In this document: piece after piece, positions 20,807 through 64,000 of the stretch | How the letters are laid out: every line of letters begins with the position of its first letter | Numbering within the stretch: the stretch's first letter is position 1 | Virus record (IMG/VR): IMGVR_UViG_3300008259_004660 | Span: 120,825-184,824 of that record | Source: a virus | Length of the DNA: 64,000 nucleotides | Reading direction: 5' to 3' (one strand) | Notes under the pieces: model-generated | The model's input: the letters and a program-made list of their open reading frames with translations, nothing else | What the model was told of the DNA's origin: nothing | Database searches by the model: none | Translations under genes and position numbers: made by a program

Positions 20807-22735
20807 ATGAAAATAGTTTATATTTCTCCACACCTTTCAACGGGCGGATGTCCACAGTTTCTATTGAAGAAAATTCAAATGTTACATATGGACCACGAGG
20901 TGCATTGTATCGAATATAATGATCATGGGTGTTTTACTGTTCAAAAGAATCAGATCAAAGAAATTCTTGGTGATAGACTTTACAGAGTAAATGATCGCAA
21001 GGAGGAATTGCTGGAAATTATTGATAGAGTTCAGCCAGATGTGGTTCATTTGGAAGAAATGCCAGAATATTTCATGGACAAGAGTATTGCGATGAAATTG
21101 TATAGCAAGGATCGAAAATATAAACTCATTGAAACATCCCATGACAGCAGCTTTGATCCAAAAAACAAAGGATTTTTTCCAGATAGATTTATATTCGTCA
21201 GTAAGTTTCAGGAAGAAACCATGAAAGTTTTGGGTATTCCAAGTGAAGTTTGTGAATATCCTATTGTTATTATTCCAAGAAAGCCGCGTGAAGAAGCACT
21301 GAAAGTATTGGGGCAAGATCCAAAGAAAAAACATGTAGTTCACGTTGGGTTATTTACTCCAAGAAAAAATCAGGCCGAGATCATTGATTATGCCAAGTCT
21401 CTGATCAATTATCCAATACAATTTCACTTTGTAGGAAATCAAGCTGAAAATTTCAGATTCTATTGGGAACCGTTGATGAAAAATTTTCCAAAGAATTGCA
21501 CTTGGTGGAATGAAAGAAAAGATGTTGGCAATTTTTACCAAATGGCAGATCTATTTCTATTTCCATCAAAGGATGGTATTGGAGACAAAGAGACAAGTCC
21601 ATTGGTGATACGAGAAGCAATATCATATAACATTCCCACACTTATATACAATTCTCCTGTTTATATGGGAATGTATGATAAGTTTGATGCTGTGGAATAT
21701 TTGGATCAAAATAGCAAAGATAACAACGCGAAGAAAATATTGGAAATGCTCAGTATTGATTTGAATGATATTGTTCCGATTGAAGCAGAAAAGGACGAAG
21801 ATATCAAGATTGATTATGATCGCGCAGACAATAAGATAAATGTCTCCAGTCGTATCCAAATTGAAAATGCCCTACTATCAATTAAAGAGTTGGATAGCAA
21901 GCAAGTATTATATGCAGCGCCATACAACCCATTACACAAAGATATCAAGTATTGGATTATTCCTGTGCCCAAGGGGTTCATGGATTTTGAAACAGATAAA
22001 TACTTTGGTGGTATATTGGTTGAATTGTACAGCAATGATAAGCTCATATACACCAAGGAATTCAGAATCAAGTATCCAGATGTACTAAAACCTTCTGTGG
22101 TGTTAAAGAACAACACATCGCCTTCATACAGCAATTATATGGAATTTTTTGTACACAAGATATATGATCGTTATCTTGCCAACAAGAAATTTGACACCGT
22201 GGTTGATGTTGGTGCCAATATCGGATTATGGTCCGAATATATCAGACGCTCGTCAACTTGCCAAAAGATATACGCGGTCGAGCCTAATATCCAAGCATTG
22301 GAGATATTGACCAACTCTTTTACAAACAATGAATTTATTATTGTGGACAAAGCTCTTACAGATAAAGATGGCGAGTTGGAATTCTTCGTAGACAACAACA
22401 ATTCCACAATTGGCGCAACAACAAAACAGGGAAGTCTTCAAAACTCATACAAAGTAAAAGCGGTGTCGTTCAAGACATTCCTAAAAGAGAATGACATCAA
22501 ACATATTGACTTGTTCAAAATGGATATTGAAGGTGGTGAATATTCATTCTTTGAAAGCATGCAGAGCGAAGATTTGAACAAGATTTCCAACCTTATGATT
22601 GAATTTCATCTTGGAAACGGAAGAACGATGGAAAAAGATGTCGCGATTCTTGAAGCACTTTTCAGAGGTGCTGGGTTCAAGAGCTTTATTTCAAAGGAAC
22701 ATGACTTGGGTGGATTTATCTTTGCAACCAAATGA
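20807..22735 (+). CDS. GT4-like glycosyltransferase fused to an FkbM-family methyltransferase
   Basis: HLSTGG N-terminus, FTPRKNQ, ADLFLFPS, E.SPLVIREA (GT-B); then VVDVGANIG, AVEPN, FKMDIEGGE (FkbM). Confidence 0.85.
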   Translation: MKIVYISPHLSTGGCPQFLLKKIQMLHMDHEVHCIEYNDHGCFTVQKNQIKEILGDRLYRVNDRKEELLEIIDRVQPDVVHLEEMPEYFMDKSIAMKLYSKDRKYKLIETSHDSSFDPKNKGFFPDRFIFVSKFQEETMKVLGIPSEVCEYPIVIIPRKPREEALKVLGQDPKKKHVVHVGLFTPRKNQAEIIDYAKSLINYPIQFHFVGNQAENFRFYWEPLMKNFPKNCTWWNERKDVGNFYQMADLFLFPSKDGIGDKETSPLVIREAISYNIPTLIYNSPVYMGMYDKFDAVEYLDQNSKDNNAKKILEMLSIDLNDIVPIEAEKDEDIKIDYDRADNKINVSSRIQIENALLSIKELDSKQVLYAAPYNPLHKDIKYWIIPVPKGFMDFETDKYFGGILVELYSNDKLIYTKEFRIKYPDVLKPSVVLKNNTSPSYSNYMEFFVHKIYDRYLANKKFDTVVDVGANIGLWSEYIRRSSTCQKIYAVEPNIQALEILTNSFTNNEFIIVDKALTDKDGELEFFVDNNNSTIGATTKQGSLQNSYKVKAVSFKTFLKENDIKHIDLFKMDIEGGEYSFFESMQSEDLNKISNLMIEFHLGNGRTMEKDVAILEALFRGAGFKSFISKEHDLGGFIFATK

Positions 22736-22738
22736 TGT

Positions 22739-23386
22739 ATGGAATGGTCTGAAATTACAACAACATACCTTTCTGGGCTTGTAGGTGGAATAGATGGTGT
22801 ATTTCACGCGGGTGCTCATGATGGTGAAGAAATAACCGAGTATGTCAAATGCGGCATAAATAACATTGTTTGGGTCGAAGCCAATTACAGAACACTCAAT
22901 AAGCTGATAAACACCACATCAAAGTATGGAAGAAACCAATTTTGGTATTCACATTGCCTATCCGATGTTGATGATCAGATCAATGTGTTCAACATATCCA
23001 ACAACGATGAAAGTTCTTCCATGCTTGATTTTGGAAAAGATCATAAAGAGCTTATGTCTCATATCGTATATGTTAGCAAACAATATATGCTTACCAAGCG
23101 AATTGACACATTAGTCAAAGAACAAAAAGATTTTGATTGGAACAGCATCAATTATTTGGTAACAGATTGCCAAGGATGTGATTTGAAGGTGTTGAAAGGA
23201 TGTGGAAATTTGCTTGCTTCTCCAAATTTGAAAATAATCAAAAGTGAAGTTGATGTGAAAGAAATGTATCGTGGTGGATCAACGGAAAAAGAAATTGGAA
23301 ATCACTTATCTCAGTTTGGTTTTGAGCTTAGATTTTGGTTCAATGCAAATGGTGGTTGGGGCGAACGTTATTGGTTCAGAAATTAA
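22739..23386 (+). CDS. FkbM-like SAM-dependent methyltransferase
   Basis: VFHAGAHDGEE, WVEAN, SSSML, DCQGCDLKVLKG, IKSEV. Confidence 0.8.
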   Translation: MEWSEITTTYLSGLVGGIDGVFHAGAHDGEEITEYVKCGINNIVWVEANYRTLNKLINTTSKYGRNQFWYSHCLSDVDDQINVFNISNNDESSSMLDFGKDHKELMSHIVYVSKQYMLTKRIDTLVKEQKDFDWNSINYLVTDCQGCDLKVLKGCGNLLASPNLKIIKSEVDVKEMYRGGSTEKEIGNHLSQFGFELRFWFNANGGWGERYWFRN

Positions 23387-23388
23387 TT

Positions 23389-24699
23389 ATGGACGAAAAT
23401 ACATTCATAGACATATGGAATGAGTGCTGTGAGTTCAATATTGAACAGAAGCCAGAGGAATATAGGCAGTTACTTGAACTGTTGGAATTAAAATGTAAAA
23501 AAGGAGCAGTGTTGGAAATAGGTTCCAACTATGGCGGAACTACGGTTGGATTTTGCAGAATGTTCAACAAAGTTATAACCATTGACATAAAACACGATCC
23601 AAACTTTGACAAGTTAAAATCCAAGTATTCTGGATATCAGTATGTGTTGGGAGACTCCAAGAGTAATGACATGTTGGAGTATATCAAGAGTCTTGGCATC
23701 AAGTTTGATTTTATCTTCATAGATGGCGATCATTCATATGAAGGCGTGAAAAACGATTATGAAAAATACAAGCAGTTTCTTGCTCATGATGGTTATATGG
23801 CATTTCATGACATTGTGTATAGCCAAGAAAACGAAGCAAATAATTGCAGAGTAGATAAGCTATGGAATGAATTTGATTCGTATGGTTTGGAAAAGTATAT
23901 GTTTATTTCGTCGGCAAAAACTCATTCTTATCGTACAGACCAACTATTCTACACATTTGTCAACAATCGACCATATTCATCATGGGGAGGAATTGGTGTA
24001 TTAAAGAACACTCCTGTAGCTGTGTTCTGTCACAATTATTTGGCAAATGGATGGATTGATATTGTGCAAAGTCAATTGAGCAAATTGATCAATTCTGGAT
24101 TGTATAAGAGAGCGGACAAAATTGTATATGGAGTATTGCCAACAGATGAAATGTCTTATTCTGCATTCTTGGCTATGATAAGACTTAGGGATGTTGACAA
24201 GAAAATTGAAATATATCGTTACAGCAAAAACATGTATGAATATCCTACGCTCATACATCTTCAGAATTATTGTGCCAATAATCCAAACGCGCATGTTTTG
24301 TATTATCATGCCAAAGGTACTTCACGCAAGTATGATACCAACATAGAATCTTGGCGCGAATGTCTTGAGTATTTCAATATAGAATTGTGGAGAAAGGCTG
24401 TGAATGATCTTAATATTGGCAACCATGATGTATGTGGAGCATTGTATGTTACTTGGTTTGCTTTCTTGGACAAAGTGTTTACAAACTATTATTCTGGTAA
24501 TTTTTGGTGGTCTAGTGCAAAATATATAAACACATTGCCAAACTTGTCCGCCAAAATGATTGAATCAAAAATGGATAGAGATGTGCCAGAAAGATGGATT
24601 GGGTATGGAGCACATAGATGGGCAAACTATTATAACGAAAATGTGTCATCTTGGTATGAACATTATTTCGATCCCAATATTTATAGACAGGTAAAATAA
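23389..24699 (+). CDS. Class I SAM methyltransferase (Methyltransf_24-like) fused to a putative glycosyltransferase-like domain (ATG 23389 preferred)
   Basis: LEIGSNYGGT, DFIFIDGDHSYEGV, FHDI; C-terminal YEYPTL, VLYYHAKG, YSGNFWW, ERWIG module seen in phage glycosylation loci. Confidence 0.75.
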   Translation: MDENTFIDIWNECCEFNIEQKPEEYRQLLELLELKCKKGAVLEIGSNYGGTTVGFCRMFNKVITIDIKHDPNFDKLKSKYSGYQYVLGDSKSNDMLEYIKSLGIKFDFIFIDGDHSYEGVKNDYEKYKQFLAHDGYMAFHDIVYSQENEANNCRVDKLWNEFDSYGLEKYMFISSAKTHSYRTDQLFYTFVNNRPYSSWGGIGVLKNTPVAVFCHNYLANGWIDIVQSQLSKLINSGLYKRADKIVYGVLPTDEMSYSAFLAMIRLRDVDKKIEIYRYSKNMYEYPTLIHLQNYCANNPNAHVLYYHAKGTSRKYDTNIESWRECLEYFNIELWRKAVNDLNIGNHDVCGALYVTWFAFLDKVFTNYYSGNFWWSSAKYINTLPNLSAKMIESKMDRDVPERWIGYGAHRWANYYNENVSSWYEHYFDPNIYRQVK

Positions 24700-24702
24700 G
24701 TT

Positions 24703-25500
24703 ATGTACAAAGGTAAAAAGGTTATACTCACAACCACAGCGTGCAGACGCCCACAATTGCTGTATATGGCAATCAAGAGTTTTGGAGTATTTTGTACAGA
24801 CAAAGATGTTATAGATGAAATTTATTACTTGGACGATTCATCATCTCAAGAAGATCGTAATTTTGCCATAGAAACATATACAAAGTTTATTGGCAAACCT
24901 GTTATATTCAGATTTGTTGAGCGCGAAACATTTCCAGACAATTATAGACATGCCAGAATGCTCAATATCTGGAGAGAATGTGTTATTGAATCGAAAGCCG
25001 ATTATGTGTTTCATCTTGAAGATGATCATCGCATGTATAACATGCTTACTATAGGCCAGCCTATTGATATCATGCAAAAATATCCAGAATATGCATACAT
25101 CGGATATTGTCACAGTTGGAAACATTTTCCAAAAGGCATGGAGCCAAAAAGAGTAATTGGGGATTTTTGGGAAACTGTATATTTTGATGATCGTCCAATA
25201 AATGATCACTTGTTTATGGATGACGCTATGGCTATGCAGACTGGTCCAGAATGGTGGATGTATTATATAAATTGGCCATATTTTTCATTGAGGCCGGGCG
25301 TGCATGATGCAAAAAAACTTTTATCGGTGGGAGAATTTTCAACGACATATGACCGCGAAAAAATGAGTGTAGAACTTGAATTCGCCATCCGTTGGAAAGA
25401 TATGGGTTATAAAAGCATGATGAGCAAGAATTTTACTTCACTTCATACTGGACAAAGTCCCGAACTTAGTGCATATAAGTTGAACGCATCTGCCAGATAA
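24703..25500 (+). CDS. GT-A fold (GT2-like) glycosyltransferase
   Basis: ILTTTACRRPQLL, YLDDSS, YVFHLEDD DxD-like motif, FSLRPG, HTG. Confidence 0.7.
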   Translation: MYKGKKVILTTTACRRPQLLYMAIKSFGVFCTDKDVIDEIYYLDDSSSQEDRNFAIETYTKFIGKPVIFRFVERETFPDNYRHARMLNIWRECVIESKADYVFHLEDDHRMYNMLTIGQPIDIMQKYPEYAYIGYCHSWKHFPKGMEPKRVIGDFWETVYFDDRPINDHLFMDDAMAMQTGPEWWMYYINWPYFSLRPGVHDAKKLLSVGEFSTTYDREKMSVELEFAIRWKDMGYKSMMSKNFTSLHTGQSPELSAYKLNASAR

Positions 25501-25502
25501 AC

Positions 25503-27275
25503 ATGAGCAAACCAATCAGACTAACTGTTATAATTCCTTGTTACAACTTTGAAAAGTATGTAACACAAGCTATCGATTCTGTGTTGAATCAGAATGTGAA
25601 CTTTGGTATTGAAGTATTGATTGTGGATGATAATTCTACTGATAATACTTTCAACATCATAAATCAAAAATATGGATCAAACAATTTGGTGAAGATACAT
25701 CAGTCTCCAAAAAATCAAGGAATAACAAAGAATCTCAAGGACATGATGGATAAGGCGCTGGGCCAGTATCTGTATACAATGGACGGCGATGATTTCATCA
25801 TTGATATGAATTATCTTCAACGTGCGGTTGATTTTTTGGATAATAATCCAAAATATTCATTGGTATGTTCTGGCTACAAACTTTTATACAACGATGGAAC
25901 GATGTATCCCACAGAGGACGATCCTGCCGTATGGTCTGCTCCACGTGAAGACATATATCTCAATGATTTGCTCTCGGTGAATTATATTTCATTTGGCAGA
26001 GTATTTCGTAATTACAAGAATATCATAAAGCCTTGGATGCACGATGAACTGCATGAAGATTGGACTATCAATGCGGAAATATTGAAGAACGGCCCAGCCA
26101 GATGTGACAAGAATTATACAGGAATTTACAGAATAACAAAAGCTGGTCGCATAACTTCCATGAGCGAAGGACAGGTACACGAGAAGAACAGAAAAACTAT
26201 TGCCGCCATAAAGAGCAATCTTACACTGAAAACAATATCAATTGTTGATTCATTTGTACACAATGAAAATGTTAAAGTTAAGCTTGAGAGATGCATTAAA
26301 TTTTTGAAAGAGGATGGGCATGAAATTTTGCTGGTGTCCAATACTCCTGTGGATAAGCATATTATACAAGATGTAAAATTTTTCATGTATGATAGCAGAA
26401 ATCAACTATTCAAGCAGGAATATGAGACAAAAAACACAGTTGATTTTTGGCGTGCATTGAATGGTAATTTGGAAGTACATGATATTGTTACCGCAGTGCA
26501 AAAGCACGGTCTCAGTGTTCTTATCAATCTATTCAATGCACTACATTATGCAAAACAACAGGGATATACACATTTTCAAAGATTTGAAGTCGATGATTTG
26601 TTTGGTGAAAAATCAAGATCTTGGATCAAGCGAGTTCCAACATATGTACTTGAAGAAGATAAACGAGGATTGATATATTACAATTATGAGAATTCTCCTT
26701 CTGATATTTCGTTTCACTATTTCTTCTGTGAGATAGATTATTTTCTAAAGAAGATAAGCCGCATAACTTGTGAGGAAGATTATGTGAAGTATCTGCATGA
26801 CTATTATGGTAACAAGGAATTCAAGATTGTAGAAGTATTCATGTATGATCAATTAAAGAAGAATGGCGACAAGGAAATATTACAGAAGACTGGAAGAGAA
26901 ATGAAGATTGATTTTTTCGACACGAAATGGAACACAGAAACTTCCGTAAGTAATTTTGAAACAACATTCTTTGGCTGCACCACCAAGGTGTATGAAGCTA
27001 GAAATTGGAATTCTGTGGCCAGAGAGTTCAATAAGAGGGACGATTATGTGTTGGTAACATATTCATACAATGATACACCTATAAAACGCATAATTGATGT
27101 TGAAAAACATGATGGTACCAGAGAAACAATCGAGCAGTCTGTACATGCAGCTGGTAGTTGGGTATGGCATGTTCTGTCGCCAAATTCAAAAGCAGTTTCA
27201 GTTTATCAAGACGGTAATCTATTATACAATCAACAAATAAAAAATCTTGAATCTTGGGCTGGATTCAGAAGCTAA
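25503..27275 (+). CDS. GT2 glycosyltransferase with a second C-terminal domain
   Basis: TVIIPCYNFEKY, IVDDNSTDNT, YTMDGDDF, EDW canonical GT2 motifs. Confidence 0.85.
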   Translation: MSKPIRLTVIIPCYNFEKYVTQAIDSVLNQNVNFGIEVLIVDDNSTDNTFNIINQKYGSNNLVKIHQSPKNQGITKNLKDMMDKALGQYLYTMDGDDFIIDMNYLQRAVDFLDNNPKYSLVCSGYKLLYNDGTMYPTEDDPAVWSAPREDIYLNDLLSVNYISFGRVFRNYKNIIKPWMHDELHEDWTINAEILKNGPARCDKNYTGIYRITKAGRITSMSEGQVHEKNRKTIAAIKSNLTLKTISIVDSFVHNENVKVKLERCIKFLKEDGHEILLVSNTPVDKHIIQDVKFFMYDSRNQLFKQEYETKNTVDFWRALNGNLEVHDIVTAVQKHGLSVLINLFNALHYAKQQGYTHFQRFEVDDLFGEKSRSWIKRVPTYVLEEDKRGLIYYNYENSPSDISFHYFFCEIDYFLKKISRITCEEDYVKYLHDYYGNKEFKIVEVFMYDQLKKNGDKEILQKTGREMKIDFFDTKWNTETSVSNFETTFFGCTTKVYEARNWNSVAREFNKRDDYVLVTYSYNDTPIKRIIDVEKHDGTRETIEQSVHAAGSWVWHVLSPNSKAVSVYQDGNLLYNQQIKNLESWAGFRS

Positions 27276-27279
27276 CAAT

Positions 27280-29403
27280 ATGAAAGTAATTAATGTAAAT
27301 CCGGGCATACTTCCCATTCCACCAAATGGATGGGGCGCAATCGAAAAAATCATATGGGATTATCATCTCCAACTGCAAAAAATTGGAGTACACAGTGAGA
27401 TAAAATACCTTAACGAAATCGAATATGACGATAGCACAATTGTACACGTACATGTGGCAAATTTGGCTAACATGTTTCACGAGAAAGGTGTACCTTATAT
27501 TTTTACTATCCATGACCATCATGCATATGTTTATGGAAAAGATTCTCCAGTATTCAAAGAAAACTTAAAAGCCATAGAAAACAGTGTATTTTCATTATCA
27601 CCATGCAAATATTTGCTTCCATATTTTGGTAGCAAAAAACTAAGATATTTTAGTCATGCTGTAAATACCGATGTTTTTACATTCAATAATCGTCATAGAC
27701 ACAATCCACTGAAATTGCTTTGTGTAGCTAATAATGGATATGCATATAACCAAAGTGTGGATAGAAAGGGATTTGGAATTGCAATACAAGCAGCAAAAGA
27801 ATTAGGTCTTCCAATCACAATTGCTGGGCCAAAAAATAATGACAACTTTTTCAAGACCCTTGACCCAGAACTAAACAACTATTCCAAGCTAACAAAACTG
27901 TATGATTTGGATGAAAAATGGTTGGTAAATTTGTACAACGAAAACGATCTGTTCCTTCATTTCTCTGAATTGGAAGCTGGACATCCGAATCTAACATTAT
28001 TGGAAGCAATGGCGTGTGGTCTTCCGGTTGTTGGAACTTTTGAGGAAAAAGAGTATGATGGCATGGTAGTTTCCGAAAGAAAATTTGAAAATGCCATAGA
28101 ATCAATTAAATATGCTGATCAAAATTATGATTTATTGAGAAATCATGCATTAAGCAATGCAAATAAAAATTCATACGCTAACAGAGTACATGGTTTGGTC
28201 AAACTATACAGTGAATATAGAGAGCGTATTTTCAGCAAGCAACTTGAAGTTGCATACAGTAACACCAAGATAACATATACTGAAGCGAAAAATAGAATCA
28301 AAGTAACATTTGATGACGGTGCAAAAGTTGATATATCTGGTGCAGTTCAGAAAAAATACAGAGTAAAATTCATAGATGGTCTTACCAACATGGTTGTATA
28401 TCAAACTGATATATACAACAACATGTGGGCCACTACAAATACCAAGTACTACAACAAGTGGTTGGTAGAAGTGTTTGATATCACCGACGGCATTGAAGTG
28501 TTGGAATATTCCGAGGCAATGGATCTAAAGAATCGCACAGTAAAAGTTGTATTCGACAGTGAAAGTTTGGGAGATATTCTTGCGTGGATCGGCGCCGTCG
28601 ATGAATTTCAAAATAAACATCAATGCAAGATGTATTGTGTGATATTCAACAAGTACTTGCGTGCTTTACTTGAAAAAAATTATTCAAACATAAAATTTTT
28701 GGCTGTTGATGTTTACGCCGAAGAATATTATGCAAAGTATAAGATAGGATGTTTTGATTCAAATGGATATCATCCATATATTCCAAAGGATCCGCGCACA
28801 TTGAATTTGTGTTCAATTGCAAATTGTATTTTAGGTTTAACAGATGTTGAACATAAACCAAAGCTGAATATTGACAGAAAGAAATACAGTAAAAATAAGA
28901 AATATGTATGTATTGCTGTGCAAAGTACATGTCAGGCAAAATACTGGAACAATAAGAATGGTTGGAACAATGTGGTCAAATATCTTAAATCTCAAGGATA
29001 TGAAGTATGGTGTATAGACAGATTCAACAGCTTTGGCACCAAAGATAATATGAATTATATACCAGACGGTTGCATTGATAAGACCGGAGACTTTCCGTTG
29101 GAAGAACGCATGGCTCAGTTGGCTGGTGCAAAATTTTTCATTGGACTAAGTTCTGGTCTTTCGTGGGTGGCGTGGGCGGTAGGTGTGCCAGTTGTAATGA
29201 TTAGTGGATTTACAAAGGCATATAATGAGTTCTATACGCCGCATCGTATCATAAATGAAAATGTATGCAATGGCTGTTGGAACGACGTTAATGTGAAGTT
29301 TGACCGCTCTGATTGGTTATGGTGTCCATATAACAAGAACTTTGAATGTTCTACTCAAATATCTGTGGATAGAGTGCTGTCTGAAGTTAAAAAGTTGATA
29401 TAA
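27280..29403 (+). CDS. GT4 glycosyltransferase fused to a TibC/AAH-family (BAHT) protein O-heptosyltransferase-like domain (ATG 27280 preferred)
   Basis: PIPPNGWGAIE and EAGHPNLTLLEAMACGLPVV (GT4); SLGDILAW, YVCIAVQSTCQAKYWN, FFIGLSSGLSWVAWAVGVPVVMISGF and CNGC...C...FEC four-Cys site match recalled TibC/AAH motifs. Confidence 0.85.
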   Translation: MKVINVNPGILPIPPNGWGAIEKIIWDYHLQLQKIGVHSEIKYLNEIEYDDSTIVHVHVANLANMFHEKGVPYIFTIHDHHAYVYGKDSPVFKENLKAIENSVFSLSPCKYLLPYFGSKKLRYFSHAVNTDVFTFNNRHRHNPLKLLCVANNGYAYNQSVDRKGFGIAIQAAKELGLPITIAGPKNNDNFFKTLDPELNNYSKLTKLYDLDEKWLVNLYNENDLFLHFSELEAGHPNLTLLEAMACGLPVVGTFEEKEYDGMVVSERKFENAIESIKYADQNYDLLRNHALSNANKNSYANRVHGLVKLYSEYRERIFSKQLEVAYSNTKITYTEAKNRIKVTFDDGAKVDISGAVQKKYRVKFIDGLTNMVVYQTDIYNNMWATTNTKYYNKWLVEVFDITDGIEVLEYSEAMDLKNRTVKVVFDSESLGDILAWIGAVDEFQNKHQCKMYCVIFNKYLRALLEKNYSNIKFLAVDVYAEEYYAKYKIGCFDSNGYHPYIPKDPRTLNLCSIANCILGLTDVEHKPKLNIDRKKYSKNKKYVCIAVQSTCQAKYWNNKNGWNNVVKYLKSQGYEVWCIDRFNSFGTKDNMNYIPDGCIDKTGDFPLEERMAQLAGAKFFIGLSSGLSWVAWAVGVPVVMISGFTKAYNEFYTPHRIINENVCNGCWNDVNVKFDRSDWLWCPYNKNFECSTQISVDRVLSEVKKLI

Positions 29404-45136: not shown

Positions 45137-45174
45137 TATTGTATATATCATATGTATTTTTCGTACAAAATATT

Positions 45175-45966: not shown

Positions 45967-45971
45967 AAATA

Positions 45972-56000: not shown

Positions 56001-59000
56001 GTACGTCTGCAACTTCTGGAACTGGTGGATCAAGTGGAAGTTCTGGAACTAGTGGAAGTAGTGGAACAGGAGGTTCTTCTGGAAGCAGTGGAACAAGTGG
56101 AAGTAGTGGTAGCGGTGGAAGTAGTGGTTCAAGTGGAACTTCTGGTTCATCAGGAACCAGTGGAAGCAGCGGAACTTCTGGTACAGATGGTAGTAGTGGA
56201 AGTGCTGGTACCAGTGGCAGTGCAGGTACTAGTGGTACAGACGGATCAAGTGGTACCAGTGGTAGTGCAGGTACGAGTGGAAGTAGTGGTACCAGCGGTA
56301 GCAGTGGTACAAGTGGAACTGCTGGATCAAGCGGAACGTCTGGGTCAAGTGGTTCTTCTGGTACAACTGGAACTTCTGGAAGCAGCGGAACTGCTGGTTC
56401 AAGTGGAAGTGCAGGAACATCGGGAAGTGCTGGATCTTCTGGTTCGGCTGGAACAAGTGGTAGTAGTGCAAGTGCCGGTACCAGTGGCACAAGCGGCACA
56501 GATGGATCAAGTGGTAGCAGTGGTTCTGGTGGATCAAGCGGAAGTAGTGGCACAGCTGGTAGCAGTGGAAGTAGTGGTACAAGCGGTAGCAGTGGTTCGA
56601 GTGGAACCAGTGCAACCAGTGGAAGTAGCGGTACATCTGGTACCAGTGGAAGTAGCGGTACATCTGGTTCAAGTGGAACAAGCGGTACTGATGGTAGCAG
56701 CGGAAGTAGTGGTAGTAGTGGATCTTCGGGATCAAGTGGTACTGGTGGAACAAGTGGTAGCAGTGGTACCACAGGAAGTAGTGGTAGTAGTGGTAGCGCA
56801 GGAAGTAGTGGTAGTAGTGGTTCATCTGGATCAAGTGGTACAGGAGGAAGTTCAGGAACAAGTGGAACCAGTGGTAGCAGTGGAACGGGTGGTAGTAGCG
56901 GATCAAGTGGTACTAGCGGAACAGATGGTAGCAGTGGTAGCAGCGGCAGTGGAGGAAGTTCTGGAACAAGCGGTACAGATGGTACCAGTGGTAGCAGTGG
57001 AACTTCAGGTACTTCTGGTTCAAGTGGAAGTGCAGGAACTAGTGGCAGCAGCGGAAGTAGTGGCACTACTGGAACAAGCGGTAGTAGCGGTACCAGTGGA
57101 ACAGATGGTAGTAGCGGTAGTAGTGGAACAAGTGGGTCTACTGGTACAAGTGGTAGCAGCGGATCAAGTGGTAGTAGTGGTAGTAGTGGAACAACAGGAA
57201 CAAGTGGTAGTAGTGGTACAAGTGGAACATCTGGTTCGGCTGGCTCTGCCGGATCAAGCGGTAGCAGCGGTAGTAGTGGAGCAGGAACAATTTCTGGTGG
57301 AACAAGCAACTATGTGGCAAAATTTAGCAATGCCACAACACTGACTACAAGTTCAATCTTTGATGGTGGATCTGGAGTTGGTATAAATAAATCTACAGCA
57401 AATTCCACACTTGATGTAAATGGTAATACAATAATCACTGGATCATTGACTGTTACCCAGAACGTAACCGCTTCAAACATTGTTGTTACAAATCTTTATG
57501 TACAAAACATAACTGCTTCCACGGAAATTGTAACAGGAAGTACTCAGTTTGGAACATTGCTTTCAAACAAGCATATGTTCACTGGAAGTGTTGAAATAAC
57601 AAGTTCATTAAAGGTAAATGGTGATTTTTCAGTAAATGGAAATACAGGCAGCTTGGCTTTCTCAAGCAACGCAGATACTTTGGAAATAACTGGTTCATTA
57701 TTATTAAGTGGATCAATGTTTGTTACAGGAAGTATCTCTGTAAATGGTAGTATAACTGGTTCACTTTTTGGCACGGCTTCGTATGCATTAAACGCACTTA
57801 CTGCTTCATACGCTTTAAGTTATAGTGGTACGAGCGGTAGCAGTGGAACCAGTGGGTCTTCTGGTACGTCTGGTACAAATGGAACCAGTGGATCAAGCGG
57901 AACTGGCGGAACCAGTGGAAGCAGTGGTACAGGTGGATCTTCTGGAAGTAGCGGAACGAGTGGTAGTAGTGGAAGTTCTGGTACAAGTGGTACGAGTGGT
58001 AGTAGTGGAACATCTGGAACAGATGGTAGTTCTGGATCAAGCGGTTCAAGTGGCTCCAGTGGATCATCTGGTACTTCTGGTAGCGCAGGAACATCGGGAT
58101 CTGCTGGATCGGCTGGAAGTAGCGGTAGCAGTGGAAGTGCTGGTACAAGTGGTACGAGTGGTAGTAGTGGAACATCTGGCACGGACGGAAGTAGTGGAAG
58201 TTCTGGTAGTAGTGGTACCGCTGGTACTTCTGGTAGTGCAGGTACTAGTGGAAGTAGTGGTTCGAGTGGAACATCTGGAACAGATGGAAGCAGTGGTAGT
58301 AGTGGTACTTCTGGTAGTGCCGGTACTGGTGGTTCAAGTGGAAGCAGTGGTTCATCTGGAACGAGTGGGGAAGGCGGAAGTGCAGGAACATCTGGTACAA
58401 GCGGCAGTGCTGGTACGAGTGGAACGAGTGGTAGTGCTGGAACTGCTGGATCCAGTGGTAGTGCGGGAACATCAGGTTCTGCTGGATCAGCTGGAACAAG
58501 TGGTAGTAGTGGAAGTGCTGGTACAAGTGGTACCAGCGGTTCAAGCGGAACATCTGGAACCAGTGGAAGTAGTGGATCCAGTGGAAGCAGCGGATCTTCT
58601 GGAACGAGTGGTAGTGCTGGTACTTCTGGTAGTAGTGGAACAGCTGGAACAAGTGGATCGGCCGGTTCAAGTGGTTCTTCTGGAAGTGGAGGAAGTTCTG
58701 GATCGGCTGGAACATCTGGTACAAGCGGCAGTTCTGGTACAAGTGGTACAAATGGCTCAAGTGGTACTTCTGGTACTAGCGGATCTTCTGGAACGGGTGG
58801 AACTAGTGGTAGTAGTGGAAGTGCTGGCAGTGCAGGTAGTGCAGGATCAAGCGGCACAAGTCCAATAATAACTGGAACAAACTTCACGCTTGCATTGTTC
58901 AGCGGAAGTAATGGATTGAGTAGCAGTGTGTTAAGTCAATATGATAATGGATTATATTTGACTGGATCGTTGAATGTAAGTGGATCAACTCTACAAGTTG

Positions 59001-62000
59001 GTAATAACACATTACTTGGTAACACATCACTTAGTGGTAGTTTAACAATTTCTGGTGCATTTGCCACAGCAACACCAAGTGTAAATATTTTCGGAGATAT
59101 TTCACAGACTGGATATCTCAGATTTAACCCAGTTAATACAAATATAAATCAAAGCATTTCCGCTTCATACATTTATGTCTCTGGTAGTACAAATGATTTA
59201 TATTTTGCTCAGAATGGAAGTGGATACAGTAACAATACTCGTCTTCGTTGGTTGGAAGGAGTATTATATACTGGATTGCTAAATGGTGGATTGGTATCAA
59301 GCACAGTTGGTTCTACTACTTTCAATATATCTTCTGGTAGTGGTATAATTGTAAGTTTAAATGCTAGTTTAAGCACAGATCCATTTCCAACTGTAAAATA
59401 TGTAAATTGGGGAAATTACAATAATCAACCAATAACATACTCTGGCTCCGCCAAGTTGACATATGTTGGTATTGATTCGAATGGGGCAGTTGTTCAACAA
59501 GTTGAGCCTTGGGGTTCAACAAACATAGATCAATTTGACAGCCAAATATTACTTGGTATTGTGTTGCATTTGAGTGGAAGTATTTCATCGGGAGTATTTA
59601 ATTCACCACAAACAGCATATGGTAATTCTCAAAAATCAGACGACTTTTTCAGATCGTTTGGTCCATTAAAAGTAAGTGGGCATACATTGCAAACCAGTGG
59701 GTCTTCGCTTGGCCTTACAAAGGCTGGTGGTACAGCATACAGAGATGGTGCAAATTATGTTACCAACCCAAATCACCCATCAACGGTCGTTGAAAATTCT
59801 ATAACAACAAGTAAAATTTACAGATATTATGTGTCTGGATCAACGCCTATAATTGATACTGGTGTTGGTGCATCAGGTTATACCGCAATAGATCCAAATA
59901 ATTACAACAATAATGGAGTACTTACTTCTGTTCCTTCAAACAATTATACTATTCAGAGAGTATTTTGGACTCCAAATTCTCCAACTAATGCATTTGTAGT
60001 TTATTATGGAACTGCAACATATTCCAATTTGTTGACCGCAGTCAATGCCAAGGATAGTGAACCATTTTCAGAAGCTCCAGATACAGCCACCGATGCAATC
60101 TTCTTAGGTCATATTGTTGTAAAAGAAGGAACTACAAACCTAACTGTTGCAAATGATTGCACGATAATTCAAGGCGGACTATTTAGAAATATTGCAGGTG
60201 TTGGATCAAGTGGAACTGCTGCTCCTGTTGTAAATCTTTCTGGTTTGGGTGACGTTTTAATATCCGTACCAACAGACGGTCAACCTCTTGTATATGATTC
60301 AACAGCATTGAAGTGGAGAAACTTGTCTGCCATAACCGCTTCGTTGTATGGTAATGCATCAACGGCAACAAGTGCTTCGTATGCTACCACAGCAAGCTAT
60401 GCTTTCAGTTATAGCGGAACGTCTGGTAGCAGCGGCACAAGCGGAACTTCTGGTACAGCAGGATCTGCTGGAACTTCTGGTACAAGCGGAAGTAGTGGCA
60501 CAAGTGGAACAAATGGATCTTCTGGTACAAGTGGAACTAGTGGATCAAGCGGAACAAGCGCATCCGCTGGAAGTAGTGGTTCAAGTGGAAGCGCAGGAAC
60601 TGCTGGATCTAGTGGTAGTGCTGGAACAAGTGGCAGCAGCGGAACGTCTGGTACTGGCGGTAGCAGTGGAACATCTGGTAGTAGTGGATCTGGCGGTAGC
60701 AGTGGTTCAGCTGGATCGTCTGGATCAAGTGGCAGTGCTGGAACAAGTGGAAGTGCAGGAACATCTGGGTCAACAGGTTCGAGTGGAAGCAGTGGAAGTG
60801 CAGGTAGTGCGGGAACATCTGGATCAAGTGGTAGTGCTGGAACTGCTGGTAGTGCTGGTTCGGCTGGTACAAGTGGAACGAGTGGATCTTCTGGAAGCAG
60901 TGGAAGTTCTGGATCAAGTGGTACAAGTGGAACTTCTGGATCAAGTGGAACTTCTGGATCAAGTGGTAGTAGTGGAACAAGTGCTTCATCTGGAAGCAGT
61001 GGCACAAGCGGAGCAACGGGTGCATCTGGGTCAAGTGGTACAAGTGGAACTTCTGGCTCCGCAGGTTCTGCTGGATCAAGTGGTAGTAGTGGAAGCAGCG
61101 GTGCTGGAACAATATCAGGCGGTACAGCAAATTATGTAACAAAGTTTAGCAATGCGACTACATTGACCACGAGTTCAATATTTGATGGTGGTTCTGGTGT
61201 TGGCGTAAACAAATCATATGCTAATTCGACGCTCGATGTAAATGGAAACACAATCATCACAGGTTCGTTGAATGTTACTCAAAATGTGACTGCGTCAAAT
61301 ATTTTGGTGACAAATCTTTATGTCCAAAATATTACCGCTTCAACTGAAATTGTAACGGGTAGCACGCAGTTTGGTTCATTGCTTACCAACAAACATATGT
61401 TTACAGGCAGCGTTGAAATAACAAATTCATTGAGTGTATCTGGTCAGATATATGGAACATCTTCATATGCATTGACTGCATCATACGCGATGAATGCAGC
61501 GGGTTCAAATAATTCTGTACTAACTGCTTCAGCAATACTCTTTACAGGTAGTACAACAAATGTTTCACTTTATGTTTCTGCCTCCGGCGATGTTGTATTC
61601 ACGGGAACAAACAATGGAGATATATTTGTAATATCCGACTCATCAACCGCTGGTGATCCATTGTTCAGAGTTGATGATGGTGGAGTGACATTGTTTCAAG
61701 TTTATCAAGGTGGCAATGCATATTTGAGTGGAAGTTTAACCGCATCACTTAATGGAACTGCAAGTTATGCTGTTACTGCAAGCTATGCGTTGAGTTATAG
61801 TGGAACAAGCGGTAGTAGTGGTACAAGCGGAACAGGTGGCAGCGCAGGATCAAGCGGCTCTTCTGGATCAAGTGGCAGTAGTGGAACTACTGGTACAAGT
61901 GGCAGCAGTGGTACAAGCGGAGCTACAGGTGCATCTGGATCAAGTGGAACAAGTGGTACGAGTGGAAGTAGTGGTACTTCTGGTACAGGTGGTAGTAGTG

Positions 62001-63241
62001 GAAGTTCTGGAAGCAGTGGCAGTAGTGGAAGTTCTGGTACAAGTGGAAGTGCAGGTACAAGCGGAAGTGCAGGAACAGGAGGATCGTCGGGTAGTAGTGG
62101 TAGTAGTGGATCTTCTGGAAGCGCGGGAACAAGCGGTAGTAGCGGTAGTGCTGGAACAAGCGGAACCAGTGGTAGTGCTGGCACAGGTGGTACAAGTGGT
62201 TCGTCTGGTAGCAGCGGTAGCAGTGGCAGTAGCGGTAGTGCTGGAACAAGCGGAACCAGTGGCAGTTCTGGAACAACAGGATCAAGCGGATCATCTGGCA
62301 CAAGTGGTACAAGTGGCTCGTCTGGTACAAGTGGAAGCTCTGGTACAAGTGGCAGCAGTGGTACAAGCGGCGCAACTGGTGCGTCGGGTTCAAGTGGCAC
62401 AAGTGGTACGGGTGGAAGCAGTGGAACCAGTGGTGCAACTGGAGCATCAGGTTCTAGTGGAACAAGTGGTACCAGTGGATCATCTGGAACGTCTGGTTCG
62501 GCTGGATCAAGCGGCAGTAGTGGAAGCAGCGGTGCTGGAACAATTTCTGGCGGTACAACGAGTTATGTTGCCAAGTATCTAAATTCAACAACGCTGACAA
62601 CTGGTTCATTATTTGATGATGGTACAAATGTAAGTGTTGGCAAAACAACATCCGCGTCCGCCAAACTTGATGTAAATGGAAATGTACTTATCACAGGTTC
62701 ACTTAATGTTACTCAGAATGTAACTGCATCAAACATTGTTGTCACAAATCTTTATGTTCAGACGATTACTGGTTCTGTTGAATTTATAACTGGTAGTACA
62801 CAATTTGGATCATTACTAACCAACAAACATCAATTTACTGGTAGTGTTGAAATGACTGGATCTGGTTTGGATGTTATGGGCAGTGTTGGTATAGGAACAT
62901 ACACTCCAAATGAAAAACTTGAAGTTGTTGGAAATATCAGACTTACTGCCGGTGCATACATTGACTATATATCAGAATTAAGATATGTTGGCTCGGCATG
63001 GTTAACATACAATACTAGTACTGGTAAGATAACGATAAAGAATGCATCGGGAAATGGTGTGGCAATAGATGGTGGAAATGTTACCGTCGGAAAACAATCG
63101 GCAGCAAATGCTTTATTTGATATAGCCGGCAATACTATTATATCAGGTTCACTCAATATAACCTCTGGTGTAACAGGATCATTGCTTGGAACATCAAGTT
63201 ATACACTTACGGCGAGCTATATAGATGGAGGAACGTTCTAA
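53018..63241 (+). CDS. Giant tail fibre/appendage protein, 3407 aa, with five Ser/Thr-rich Gly-X-Y segments and repeated beta-rich modules
   Basis: Single open frame; (G-S/T-S)n tracts; TASYA motifs; ends IDGGTF. Confidence 0.8.
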   Translation: MSNELIVRNGLIVSGTSSFSGSVFINGNTVVTGSIISNQVAYLTASQALTASHVLGLPDTSSWALNAVSAAFSEYAVSASYVIGAPDTASWALNAVSSSYALSSSYAVSSSYSLSGSYVDTASYSNYAVSASYVIGAPDTASWALNAVTASYVEYTNVDKITSTSQFAGTASYAQRANSIKSGIDIDVTSITASAIRVDNLHVVTITSSVNFVSGSTDFGTSITDTHVFTGSLFVQGNINVEDGYGIQGTSSYAVTASYAFNTSTSGTSGTSGSSGSSGSSGTSGSSGSAGTSGSSGTSGTDGSSGSSGTGGSSGSSGTSGSSGSSGSSGSSGSSGTSGSSGTSGSSGTTGTSGSSGSGGTSGTSGSSGTSGTSGSSGTSGTDGSSGSSGSSGSSGTSGSSGTSGTGGSSGSSGSSGSSGTSGSSGTSGSSGTSGSSGSSGSSGSSGTSGSSGTSGSSGSSGTSGSSGTTGTSGSSGSSGTTGTSGSSGSAGTSGSSGTSGTDGSSGSSGSAGTSGSSGSSGTSGSSGSSGTSATSGSSGTSGSSGSSGSSGTSGSGGTSGSSGSSGTTGTSGSSGTSGTDGSSGSSGSAGTSGSSGSSGSSGTSGSSGSSGTSGSSGSSGTSATSGSSGTSGSSGSSGSSGTSGSSGSAGTSGSSGSAGTSGSSGTSGTDGSSGSSGSSGSSGSSGTSGSSGTSGSSGTSGSSGTSGSSGTSGSSGSSGSSGTSGSSGSSGSSGSSGSSGTAGSSGSSGSSGYTPENMVTSSFQLSNDGGLAFSSANNVTFGQITASIITVSTLYVQNITSSTELVTGSFVVSGSFDAIGGVTGSLLGTASYALQALTASYALNAEGSNKTQLTASTILFTGSATNLSLNVSSSGDVAITGINNGDIVVISDSTSSTPLFGIESVNNPLFSVYNSGNAYLSGSLSASLYGTASWAVTASYALSYSGTSGSSGTSGTSGSSGSAGTSGSSGTSGTDGSSGSSGTGGSSGSSGSSGTSATSGTGGSSGSSGTSGSSGTGGSSGSSGTSGSSGSGGSSGSSGTSGSSGTSGSSGTSGTDGSSGSAGTSGSAGTSGTDGSSGTSGSAGTSGSSGTSGSSGTSGTAGSSGTSGSSGSSGTTGTSGSSGTAGSSGSAGTSGSAGSSGSAGTSGSSASAGTSGTSGTDGSSGSSGSGGSSGSSGTAGSSGSSGTSGSSGSSGTSATSGSSGTSGTSGSSGTSGSSGTSGTDGSSGSSGSSGSSGSSGTGGTSGSSGTTGSSGSSGSAGSSGSSGSSGSSGTGGSSGTSGTSGSSGTGGSSGSSGTSGTDGSSGSSGSGGSSGTSGTDGTSGSSGTSGTSGSSGSAGTSGSSGSSGTTGTSGSSGTSGTDGSSGSSGTSGSTGTSGSSGSSGSSGSSGTTGTSGSSGTSGTSGSAGSAGSSGSSGSSGAGTISGGTSNYVAKFSNATTLTTSSIFDGGSGVGINKSTANSTLDVNGNTIITGSLTVTQNVTASNIVVTNLYVQNITASTEIVTGSTQFGTLLSNKHMFTGSVEITSSLKVNGDFSVNGNTGSLAFSSNADTLEITGSLLLSGSMFVTGSISVNGSITGSLFGTASYALNALTASYALSYSGTSGSSGTSGSSGTSGTNGTSGSSGTGGTSGSSGTGGSSGSSGTSGSSGSSGTSGTSGSSGTSGTDGSSGSSGSSGSSGSSGTSGSAGTSGSAGSAGSSGSSGSAGTSGTSGSSGTSGTDGSSGSSGSSGTAGTSGSAGTSGSSGSSGTSGTDGSSGSSGTSGSAGTGGSSGSSGSSGTSGEGGSAGTSGTSGSAGTSGTSGSAGTAGSSGSAGTSGSAGSAGTSGSSGSAGTSGTSGSSGTSGTSGSSGSSGSSGSSGTSGSAGTSGSSGTAGTSGSAGSSGSSGSGGSSGSAGTSGTSGSSGTSGTNGSSGTSGTSGSSGTGGTSGSSGSAGSAGSAGSSGTSPIITGTNFTLALFSGSNGLSSSVLSQYDNGLYLTGSLNVSGSTLQVGNNTLLGNTSLSGSLTISGAFATATPSVNIFGDISQTGYLRFNPVNTNINQSISASYIYVSGSTNDLYFAQNGSGYSNNTRLRWLEGVLYTGLLNGGLVSSTVGSTTFNISSGSGIIVSLNASLSTDPFPTVKYVNWGNYNNQPITYSGSAKLTYVGIDSNGAVVQQVEPWGSTNIDQFDSQILLGIVLHLSGSISSGVFNSPQTAYGNSQKSDDFFRSFGPLKVSGHTLQTSGSSLGLTKAGGTAYRDGANYVTNPNHPSTVVENSITTSKIYRYYVSGSTPIIDTGVGASGYTAIDPNNYNNNGVLTSVPSNNYTIQRVFWTPNSPTNAFVVYYGTATYSNLLTAVNAKDSEPFSEAPDTATDAIFLGHIVVKEGTTNLTVANDCTIIQGGLFRNIAGVGSSGTAAPVVNLSGLGDVLISVPTDGQPLVYDSTALKWRNLSAITASLYGNASTATSASYATTASYAFSYSGTSGSSGTSGTSGTAGSAGTSGTSGSSGTSGTNGSSGTSGTSGSSGTSASAGSSGSSGSAGTAGSSGSAGTSGSSGTSGTGGSSGTSGSSGSGGSSGSAGSSGSSGSAGTSGSAGTSGSTGSSGSSGSAGSAGTSGSSGSAGTAGSAGSAGTSGTSGSSGSSGSSGSSGTSGTSGSSGTSGSSGSSGTSASSGSSGTSGATGASGSSGTSGTSGSAGSAGSSGSSGSSGAGTISGGTANYVTKFSNATTLTTSSIFDGGSGVGVNKSYANSTLDVNGNTIITGSLNVTQNVTASNILVTNLYVQNITASTEIVTGSTQFGSLLTNKHMFTGSVEITNSLSVSGQIYGTSSYALTASYAMNAAGSNNSVLTASAILFTGSTTNVSLYVSASGDVVFTGTNNGDIFVISDSSTAGDPLFRVDDGGVTLFQVYQGGNAYLSGSLTASLNGTASYAVTASYALSYSGTSGSSGTSGTGGSAGSSGSSGSSGSSGTTGTSGSSGTSGATGASGSSGTSGTSGSSGTSGTGGSSGSSGSSGSSGSSGTSGSAGTSGSAGTGGSSGSSGSSGSSGSAGTSGSSGSAGTSGTSGSAGTGGTSGSSGSSGSSGSSGSAGTSGTSGSSGTTGSSGSSGTSGTSGSSGTSGSSGTSGSSGTSGATGASGSSGTSGTGGSSGTSGATGASGSSGTSGTSGSSGTSGSAGSSGSSGSSGAGTISGGTTSYVAKYLNSTTLTTGSLFDDGTNVSVGKTTSASAKLDVNGNVLITGSLNVTQNVTASNIVVTNLYVQTITGSVEFITGSTQFGSLLTNKHQFTGSVEMTGSGLDVMGSVGIGTYTPNEKLEVVGNIRLTAGAYIDYISELRYVGSAWLTYNTSTGKITIKNASGNGVAIDGGNVTVGKQSAANALFDIAGNTIISGSLNITSGVTGSLLGTSSYTLTASYIDGGTF
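53810..55275 (+). repeat. Gly-X-Y (9-bp period) tract 1, about 160 triplets
   Basis: SGTSGSSGS... with Gly every third residue; boundaries approximate. Confidence 0.9.
55851..57290 (+). repeat. Gly-X-Y tract 2, about 160 triplets
   Basis: Same pattern; boundaries approximate. Confidence 0.9.
57822..58860 (+). repeat. Gly-X-Y tract 3, about 115 triplets
   Basis: Same pattern; boundaries approximate. Confidence 0.9.
60411..61105 (+). repeat. Gly-X-Y tract 4, about 77 triplets
   Basis: Same pattern; boundaries approximate. Confidence 0.9.
61797..62540 (+). repeat. Gly-X-Y tract 5, about 82 triplets
   Basis: Same pattern; boundaries approximate. Confidence 0.9.
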
Positions 63242-63283
63242 TATGAAAATCAAAATCTATAAGGTTGCCTGATATATATATTT

Positions 63284-64000
63284 ATGCCAGATAGAATATT
63301 ACATAAAAGAAATACAACAATTGGAGCAGTTCCATCAACATCATCATTGATTGTTGGTGAATTGGCAATAAATGTTGCAGATGGAAAATTGTTTACTAGA
63401 AAATCTGGCAGTAGTTCCGATGTCGTTGTTTCATATCTTGGATCTGATGTATCAAATACAGGAAGTTATACCATTTCTGGTTCTCTTATAGTATCTGGTA
63501 ATTTCTTAGCAACTGGAAACACTGGTAGTATTGCATTTTCAAGTAATGCGGACACTTTGGAAATAACTGGTTCTTTACTATTAAGTGGCTCAATGGTTGC
63601 CACGGGCAGTATATCAGTAAATGGTAGTGTAACCGCATCACTTCTTGGTACAGCTTCTTATGCATTAAATTCACTAACAGCGTCTTATGCTTTCAGTTAC
63701 AGTGGAACGTCTGGAAGCAGTGGTACCGCTGGGTCAAGCGGAAGCAGTGGTAGTAGTGGAAGTGGTGGATCTTCTGGTTCAAGTGGAACGGGTGGATCAA
63801 GTGGCAGTAGTGGGACTGGTGGATCAAGTGGCAGTAGCGGTACTAGCGGTGCTGCTGGTACTTCGGGTTCAAGCGGCACGAGTGGAACTGGTGGTAGCAG
63901 CGGAACAAGTGGTGCGACAGGTGCATCTGGTTCAAGTGGAACCAGTGGAACTGGTGGTAGCAGCGGAACAAGTGGTGCAACTGGCGCGTCTGGTTCAAGT
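63284..64000 (+). CDS. Second Gly-X-Y fibre protein (3' truncated; absent from the ORF track)
   Basis: ATG 63284 opens MPDRILHKRNTTIGAVPSTSSLIVGELAINVADGKLF (typical tail-fibre N-terminus), then TASYA and an SGT tract from about 63700 to the window end with no stop. Confidence 0.85.
   Translation, partial: MPDRILHKRNTTIGAVPSTSSLIVGELAINVADGKLFTRKSGSSSDVVVSYLGSDVSNTGSYTISGSLIVSGNFLATGNTGSIAFSSNADTLEITGSLLLSGSMVATGSISVNGSVTASLLGTASYALNSLTASYAFSYSGTSGSSGTAGSSGSSGSSGSGGSSGSSGTGGSSGSSGTGGSSGSSGTSGAAGTSGSSGTSGTGGSSGTSGATGASGSSGTSGTGGSSGTSGATGASGSS

Follow-up and report, generated by a model that had tools for sequence, protein, structure and literature searches.

A TibC/Aah-family glycosyltransferase cluster and proline-free collagen-like fibres in a T4-like phage record: a candidate system for protein O-glycosylation

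The enzymes of the TibC/Aah family (also BAHT; TIGR04414; PDB 4RAP and 4RB4) are cytoplasmic O-glycosyltransferases, so far known only from bacterial virulence adhesins and suited to the multi-site Ser modification of repetitive, Ser/Gly-rich structural proteins. In TibC, Asp110 is the catalytic base, ADP-heptose is contacted by Thr226, Lys230, Arg286 and Trp305, and Cys339/342/358/370 form an iron finger (1Fe-0S); mutation of any of these residues abolishes activity or iron binding (PMC4358343). Position 300 determines the choice between D,D- and L,D-heptose, and Aah, which has Ser there, takes both epimers, while Phe265/Val266 at the tip of a beta-hairpin thumb are needed for the dodecamer, and Ser, not Thr, is modified in TibA (PMC4358343). 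Here, we describe a putative phage counterpart. The stretch of DNA analysed, referred to as the window, is the final 64 kb (positions 120,825 to 184,824) of the 184,824-bp IMG/VR record IMGVR_UViG_3300008259_004660, for which CheckV estimates 78 % completeness. The window contains a six-gene cluster of glycosyltransferases (GTs) and methyltransferases, the last of which (gene 6) encodes a TibC/Aah-family domain, and a giant fibre gene with Pro-free collagen-like tracts. Comparative genomics supports a link between enzyme and fibres, and we consider it rather probable that the phage fibres are the substrate of the pathway encoded by the cluster.

Three further described systems are relevant. 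BclA of the Bacillus anthracis/cereus exosporium and the Riftia cuticle collagen are O-glycosylated, with the glycan credited with stabilising or hydrating the helix, and galactosylation converts (Gly-Pro-Thr)10 from a random coil to a triple helix. The BclA glycan also bears methylated sugars. Like the phage tracts, BclA and the Riftia collagen have Gly-X-Y regions that lack hydroxyproline (Hyp) and have a hydroxy amino acid at Y. However, their repeats contain Pro (GPT) with Thr at Y, whereas the phage tracts are Pro-free with Ser at Y, their glycosyltransferases are unrelated to the TibC family, and neither is viral. Collagen-like tail fibres of phages and prophages also have Gly-X-Y tracts in trimeric fibre proteins, match Pfam Collagen and have relatives with an S74 chaperone, but typical viral tracts are rich in charged triplets (KGD) and Pro, and those described here consist almost purely of Ser, Thr and Ala next to Gly, with about 590 triplets per chain. 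In mycobacteriophages, phage-encoded glycosyltransferases have been shown to modify the structural proteins of the phage itself, as would be the case here; in what is cited of that work (Freeman et al. 2023, in PMC12619734), capsid and tail-tube subunits bear the glycans at their C-termini and other enzymes are involved, with neither collagen-like tracts nor a TibC-family enzyme. The enzyme-fibre system is best regarded as a variant of kinds already described: protein glycosylation by BAHT enzymes, collagen-like proteins that carry glycans, and virion glycosylation in phages. A literature search, with subscription journals mostly outside its range, found nothing linking TibC-family enzymes to phages or to collagen-like proteins, including for Microcystis phage Mel-JY01, a relative discussed below.

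The enzyme on which the comparison with TibC rests is encoded by the last gene of the cluster:

27247-29403, + strand: gene 6, 718 aa; GT4-like GT-B domain (about residues 12-308) fused to a TibC/Aah-family (BAHT) O-glycosyltransferase domain (343-717)

Gene 6 matches TIGR04414 (hepto_Aah_TibC) over profile positions 4-374 of 374 with 377.6 bits (cut-off 200, E 6e-113), and a six-frame search of the record with the same model gave 379.7 bits. The alignment to TibC (PDB 4RAP; E 5e-78) spans TibC residues 23-379 and includes the N-terminal flattened beta-barrel (residues 23-97), for which the Pfam model PF21129 (TibC_1st) gave E 0.0013, below its cut-off. In this alignment, the counterpart of the catalytic base is Asp443 (candidate base), those of the donor contacts are Thr561, Lys565, Arg621 and Trp640, the four Cys of a putative iron finger are Cys674/677/693/701, and Ser635 occupies position 300, as in Aah. 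The TibC/AAH motifs picked out in the initial annotation are all present (LGD..AW as LGDILAW, QSTCQAKYWN, GLSSGLSW and the four-Cys site). The Asp, Thr, Lys and Trp and all four Cys are invariant across 19 phage homologues. Beta-barrel, GT-B core, catalytic Asp, ADP-heptose contacts and iron finger therefore all have predicted equivalents in gene 6. Models for lipopolysaccharide (LPS) heptosyltransferases gave E 1e-5 or worse, compared with 6e-113 for TibC/Aah, and an LPS heptosyltransferase was rejected as the identity of gene 6. No family for the TibC-like domain was found in PHROGs v4.

Judged on its sequence, gene 6 is a member of the BAHT family that lacks two features of the family, an autotransporter partner and the dodecamer thumb residues. 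Unlike TibC and Aah, it is phage-encoded and fused to a GT4 domain, with a different thumb tip, and accompanying genes for an ADP-heptose pathway are absent. No autotransporter was found in the window or in the 184.8-kb record, and the associated genes are those of phage fibres, putatively trimeric, with Pro-free tracts. The N-terminal GT4 fusion may alter the oligomeric state of gene 6.

The fibre genes lie at the end of the window, the first directly 3' of a gp15-like tail-completion gene (51503-52903; weak Pfam match, below cut-off). They and the blocks of tracts in the first of them are:

53018-63241, + strand: giant fibre gene, 3407 aa; 12 Pro-free Gly-[Ser/Thr]-[Ser/Ala] tracts, 589 triplets
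53816-55282, + strand: tract block 1, 89 + 29 + 43 triplets
55856-57286, + strand: tract block 2, 17 + 50 + 15 + 74 triplets
57827-58861, + strand: tract block 3, 115 triplets
60416-61108, + strand: tract block 4, 16 + 46 + 13 triplets
61802-62539, + strand: tract block 5, 82 triplets
63284-64000, + strand: second fibre gene, 3' end cut by the record end; Pfam Collagen match above the cut-off (E 1.6e-9, 37.8 bits)

The 3407-aa protein contains 1059 Ser, 786 Gly and 461 Thr, and only 29 Pro. Taking uninterrupted Gly-X-Y runs of at least six triplets as the mark of a collagen-like protein, 12 runs were found, and the triplets include GSS (271), GTS (182) and GSA (57). In the tracts, position X is Ser (337) or Thr (239) and position Y is Ser (457), Ala (67) or Gly (29). 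Shuffled versions of the same protein contained a mean of 1.9 and a maximum of 19 Gly-X-Y triplets, compared with the 589 present. The approximately 600 G-[ST]-S triplets originally counted in this protein are thus recovered as 589 Gly-X-Y triplets with Ser or Thr at X and mostly Ser at Y, and the second gene was rightly recognised as being of the same design: it has a tail-fibre-like N-terminus, then the pre-tract module of its larger neighbour and then a Gly-Ser/Thr-Ser tract. The tracts contain no Pro and almost no charged residues, so that neither Pro/Hyp nor charged pairs are available to stabilise a helix. As triple helices with a rise of 0.286 nm per residue, the tracts would be about 505 nm long. 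They alternate with Ser/Thr-rich non-collagen modules and a central domain of 518 aa. Nothing credible was found in Pfam (E up to 1) or PHROGs for the non-collagen modules; the inter-tract modules have repeated TGS/SGS turns and a weak bactofilin (beta-helix) match.

The DNA of the tracts is not a simple tandem repeat. Because 1729 of 1758 in-frame 27-mers are distinct while encoding only 108 distinct 9-residue peptides, and because both the AGY and the TCN codon families are used for Ser at position Y, the peptide pattern is kept by selection. Many long antisense or out-of-frame open reading frames (ORFs; up to 541 aa) are found inside the fibre gene, on both strands, between 53791 and 62447. 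They are a by-product of the periodicity of the Gly-Ser/Thr codons, and automatic annotation is likely to mis-call them as genes.

The association between enzyme and tracts was examined in both directions, as the initial annotation had proposed for TIGR04414-like genes and Gly-Ser/Thr repeat proteins, and was positive in both. In the forward direction, 27 IMG/VR loci with a close TibC homologue were identified and 25 whole records were scanned for at least five consecutive Gly-[ST]-[ST] triplets, with the reversed pattern as control. Ten of the 25 TibC-bearing records were tract-positive and none was positive for the reversed pattern. The proportion was six of seven for records estimated to be at least 50 % complete, which include two complete 65-kb genomes. 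L018/L019 were scored as negative, yet a 535-aa collagen-like Gly-Thr-[Ser/Asn] protein adjoins their TibC gene. The 735-kb phage LR756501 has a full-length GT4-TibC fusion and 1278 matches to the pattern, with one tract gene 3.6 kb from the enzyme gene. In the reverse direction, 72 viral records were chosen, among the matches listed, only for at least seven Gly-[ST]-[ST] triplets. Of these listed records, 22 carry the TIGR04414 family (20 above the cut-off), as do six of the nine that are at least 90 % complete, again among the matches listed. For comparison, only four of 50,697 catalogued phage records have a TibC-type domain. Among contigs of at least 60 kb that were not selected on TibC, the enzyme was found in 16 of 26 tract-positive and one of 10 tract-negative contigs (p = 0.008; the records are mostly fragmentary, and relatives among them do not count as independent, so that this and the following p-values are indicative only). 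A scan of genome contigs found one distant homologue, without tracts, in a contig of a Paceibacteria metagenome-assembled genome; it gives no pointer to the host.

As a control for lineage, the comparison was made within a single capsid clade. On the basis of PHROG and Pfam matches of the window proteins, the record belongs to a distant T4-like myovirus; the PHROG matches include a baseplate wedge protein, primase, fused SbcC-SbcD nuclease, large terminase (TerL), portal, prohead protease and gp23-type major head protein. Among catalogued capsids, the closest belong to Microcystis phage Mel-JY01 (58 %), Flavobacterium phage immuto (56 %) and the huge phage LR756508. When only complete genomes or records at least 43 % complete were considered, three members of the clade have both enzyme and tracts (this record, Mel-JY01 and a genome of 297 kb), seven lack both (four IMG/VR records together with immuto, LR756508 and RM378) and none is discordant (p = 0.008). 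The gap between the SbcCD and TerL genes is 4.6-4.8 kb in two TibC-negative relatives compared with 15.7-16.5 kb where the cluster is present, and because it is shorter where TibC is lacking, the cluster behaves as an island that is gained and lost together with the tract fibres.

Beyond this clade, the capsid identity of phages with both TibC and tracts ranges from 84 % down to 23 %, and several complete or near-complete genomes lack a gp23-type capsid altogether; hence, the pairing recurs in unrelated phages. A tract gene is no more than 10 kb away from that for TibC in Mel-JY01, LR756501 and loci L018/19, L023, L027, L028 and L029. Neighbouring tract proteins in other lineages pass the Pfam Collagen cut-off, and one has at its end the Peptidase_S74 intramolecular chaperone that characterises trimeric tail fibres. 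The modules that flank the tracts differ by lineage and the rule that X is Thr or Ser and Y is Ser (70-78 %) is constant. In the tract-negative loci L021 and L007, the neighbour of the TibC gene is still a Ser/Gly-rich fibre with a Peptidase_S74 chaperone. Almost without exception, the TibC domain is joined to GT4, and some lineages have further fusions to FkbM, a second GT9 domain or DUF3431. The recurrence of these fusions argues for initiation, extension and methylation as steps of one pathway. Metagenomes contain over 1000 members of the GT4-TibC fusion family, of which almost all either lack a name or have been labelled automatically as autotransporter heptosyltransferases.

In the Mel-JY01 entry (L001, PP395634.1), a + strand ORF with 202 Gly-X-Y triplets occupies positions 2-3049, running into the start of the record. 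The GenBank annotation of this region has two minus-strand 'hypothetical proteins' (1-651 and 739-2298), and the fibre gene has probably been mis-annotated. The 1226-aa GT4-TibC fusion downstream of it is labelled only 'methyltransferase FkbM'.

The remaining genes of the cluster were examined using Pfam and NCBIfam. As initially annotated, 20807-29403 contains six contiguous + strand ORFs, and those preceding gene 6 are:

20807-22735, + strand: gene 1, 642 aa; GT1/GT4-type GT-B domain, residues 161-316 (PF00534, E 1.5e-16)
20807-22735, + strand: gene 1, second domain; FkbM methyltransferase, residues 464-625 (PF05050, E 1.3e-17; TIGR01444, E 1.6e-24)
22739-23386, + strand: gene 2, 215 aa; FkbM-family methyltransferase (PF05050, E 4.9e-10, 40.2 bits, cut-off 22.7)
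23335-24699, + strand: gene 3, 454 aa; N-terminal Methyltransf_24/CmcI-type domain (rhamnosyl O-methyltransferase-like)
24703-25500, + strand: gene 4, 265 aa; no match in Pfam, NCBIfam or PHROG
25503-27275, + strand: gene 5, 590 aa; N-terminal GT2 (GT-A) glycosyltransferase (PF00535, E 3.4e-25)

The three methyltransferase domains counted initially are those of genes 1, 2 and 3, all above the Pfam or TIGRFAM cut-offs (gene 1, TIGR01444, 87 bits, cut-off 37.7; gene 3, PF13578, E 3.9e-14, 53.9 bits, cut-off 26.3, and PF04989, E 1.1e-6, 28.9 bits, cut-off 23.2); a sugar of the glycan would be the methyl acceptor. Gene 1 also has a weak match to RfbT of V. cholerae. The count of about six glycosyltransferase domains was somewhat high, as four are firm and a fifth is a lead only: gene 4 is probably a divergent GT-A (GT2-like) glycosyltransferase, given an ESM Atlas feature search score of 0.98 to viral clusters with PF00535 in 20-69 % of members. 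Nothing credible was found in Pfam (E up to 1) or PHROG for gene 4 or for the C-terminal parts of gene 3 (about 275 aa) and gene 5 (about 440 aa), and single-sequence AlphaFold2 models of these halves were unusable (pLDDT 36 and 35, respectively).

We propose that the phage encodes a cytoplasmic pathway for protein O-glycosylation in which the TibC/Aah-family domain of gene 6 would be the initiating enzyme. The likeliest substrates would be the trimeric fibre proteins of the phage, above all the Ser at position Y of the Pro-free Gly-[Ser/Thr]-Ser tracts. Extension of the first sugar would fall to the GT4 domain of gene 6 and to the GT4, GT2 and GT2-like enzymes next to it, and the FkbM- and CmcI-type methyltransferases would O-methylate, and so cap, the glycan. 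A dense glycan would replace the Hyp or glycosylated Thr of other collagens, allowing a helix that could reach about 0.5 micrometre, and would also shield the fibre. That the initial annotation envisaged a glycan coat initiated, extended and O-methylated on the fibres fits both the co-occurrence and the recurrent fusions of TibC to GT4 and often FkbM; the tract as acceptor, heptose as the sugar, the action of genes 1-5 on the same glycan and the purpose of the glycan are parts of that proposal that we infer. Heptose, drawn from host ADP-heptose, is the default guess for the sugar and is rated below the identification of the fibres as substrate. The broadest form of the proposal, a widespread phage system in which a BAHT-family enzyme hyper-glycosylates Y-position Ser of Pro-free collagen-like fibres and the glycan, rather than Hyp or charge pairs, folds and stabilises triple helices of up to about 0.5 micrometre, is put forward tentatively and may well not hold in full.

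Several observations weigh against this proposal. The known substrates of TibC are beta-helical autotransporter passengers recognised as strand-loop-strand motifs, and not collagen. The thumb-tip positions equivalent to Phe265/Val266 are Asp-Asn in gene 6, and the feature needed for the dodecamer is missing. In the window, the cluster and the fibre gene are 24 kb apart. About half of the near-complete tract-bearing phages lack the TibC enzyme and, conversely, LR756504 and some fragments have the enzyme without tracts; the fragmentary and related nature of the records, noted above, limits the statistics. Because a second glycosylation cassette is present in the same genome (see below), not all glycosyltransferases of this phage need serve these fibres, and the assignment of genes 1-5 to them is uncertain. 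The supply of heptose is a further difficulty. Genes of the gmhA or HldE (rfaE-domain-II) type are absent from this record and from 21 of 22 other TibC-bearing phages, the exception being LR756504 (see below). The capsid relatives infect Microcystis and Flavobacterium, hosts in which heptose supply is doubtful. Arg286 and position 300 vary among the 19 phage homologues and, for this reason, the donor sugar may differ between phage lineages and need not be heptose throughout.

The preference of the family for strand-loop-strand motifs, which is reflected in its NCBIfam name, raises the possibility that the TibC-type enzyme glycosylates Ser in beta-strand-loop-strand modules between the tracts, with the tracts themselves being unmodified spacers or modified by another enzyme. 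The TGS/SGS turns and weak bactofilin match of the inter-tract modules would suit such an acceptor, as would the Ser/Gly-rich S74 fibres that adjoin the TibC genes of L021 and L007. However, it is the tract rule that is conserved between lineages and not the flanking modules, and the co-occurrence was measured on the tract pattern itself, and we regard this alternative as unlikely. Less likely still is that the cluster modifies host LPS, another surface polysaccharide or the phage DNA, and that its association with fibres reflects hitch-hiking in a mobile structural module. Polysaccharide pathways typically use GT2, GT4, GT9-like and FkbM enzymes, DNA and host O-antigen are common targets of phage glycosyltransferases, and the absence of TibC from half of the near-complete tract-bearing phages would be readily accommodated. 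Nevertheless, gene 6 matches the protein-specific TibC/Aah subfamily, which is marked by a beta-barrel and an iron finger, much better than it matches the LPS heptosyltransferase models; the Pfam and NCBIfam matches of the cluster include no gene for a flippase, a polymerase or an undecaprenyl-phosphate transferase; and the association is seen in capsid lineages that are unrelated and at various positions in the genome.

It was also considered that the TibC-like domain might act in a mainly non-catalytic way, such as by helping to assemble or target the fibre. Burkholderia BimC has been proposed as a non-catalytic partner of this kind for the autotransporter BimA, and with this precedent for partner-binding roles in the BAHT family, together with the loss of the dodecamer thumb-tip residues, such a role is conceivable. 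We consider it very improbable, as the catalytic base and the donor-contact residues other than Arg286 are invariant in the 19 divergent phage homologues and the fusion to further glycosyltransferase or methyltransferase domains argues for chemistry. Glycosylation of the fibres by the cluster therefore is the explanation that we prefer.

If this is correct, the TibC/Aah family, hitherto a niche trait in the virulence of enteric bacteria, would become a tool in common use among environmental phages, and a second, mechanistically distinct case of phage virion glycosylation would be added to that already described. One enzyme and one repeat would also provide a compact genetic test system for whether and when O-glycosylation folds Pro-poor triple helices, a question raised in PMC11923368. 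Glycan-coated fibres half a micrometre in length would bear on host recognition, on protease and grazing resistance, and on how numerous phage genes now listed as 'hypothetical' are annotated, as exemplified by the Mel-JY01 fibre gene that is annotated as antisense ORFs.

A number of genes possibly relevant to the sugar donor were noted. A 1300-aa multidomain protein is encoded just 3' of the TibC gene (29431-33333). Its N-terminus weakly resembles RNA ligases, and it further has a nucleotidyltransferase domain of the HIGH-motif type (PHROG cytidyltransferase, E 2e-7) and matches to two PHROGs of unknown function. A 1311-aa ORF is in the same place in locus L004, and Mel-JY01 has a 'cytidylyltransferase like protein' about 2.8 kb downstream of its TibC gene. 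The 1300-aa protein was considered as a maker of ADP-heptose and rejected, as it has only weak generic HIGH-motif matches and the rfaE-domain-II model has no match in the record. Small nucleotidyltransferases (137-161 aa) that match the HldE adenylyltransferase domain model below its cut-off were found in G010, G013, G018, G021, G025, G031 and G067; that is, in seven of 22 TibC-bearing compared with none of 25 TibC-negative phage records (p = 0.003), and they are not adjacent to the TibC genes. The 636-kb huge phage LR756504.1, which has no tracts, carries a divergent TibC-like gene that stands alone (30 % identity) and, 27 kb away, a bona fide gmhA (251 bits); the two loci are 430182-430640 and 457178-458227. 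This may represent a different, heptose-committed use of the TibC family.

The second glycosylation cassette (G000:C1:101009-110800, locus L275) is about 10-20 kb upstream of the window start. It encodes a GT60-type N-acetylglucosamine transferase (PF11397, E 1.8e-59), a GT11 (E 3.9e-26) and a UDP-galactopyranose mutase (E 1.1e-70), with weaker matches for two GT1-like genes and one GT25, and directly follows the gene for an 838-aa protein with Pro/Thr runs. Its presence favours virion-protein glycosylation as a general theme. Further proteins with Pro/Thr runs are encoded at positions 42077-46513 and 92852-97614 of the same record.

Elsewhere in the window, the SbcD-like and SbcC-like (gp47/gp46) nuclease subunits are joined in a single 1068-aa protein (15413-18619), and an HNH homing-endonuclease-like gene (47960-48367) is inserted after the head-tail adaptor gene. 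Structural genes surround those for a 1055-aa protein with FG-GAP repeats (E 1.6e-27) and a dockerin-like segment (9815-12982) and for a 658-aa protein with DUF6242/EPTP beta-propeller-like matches (48371-50347), both of which may be virion proteins of an adhesin-like type.

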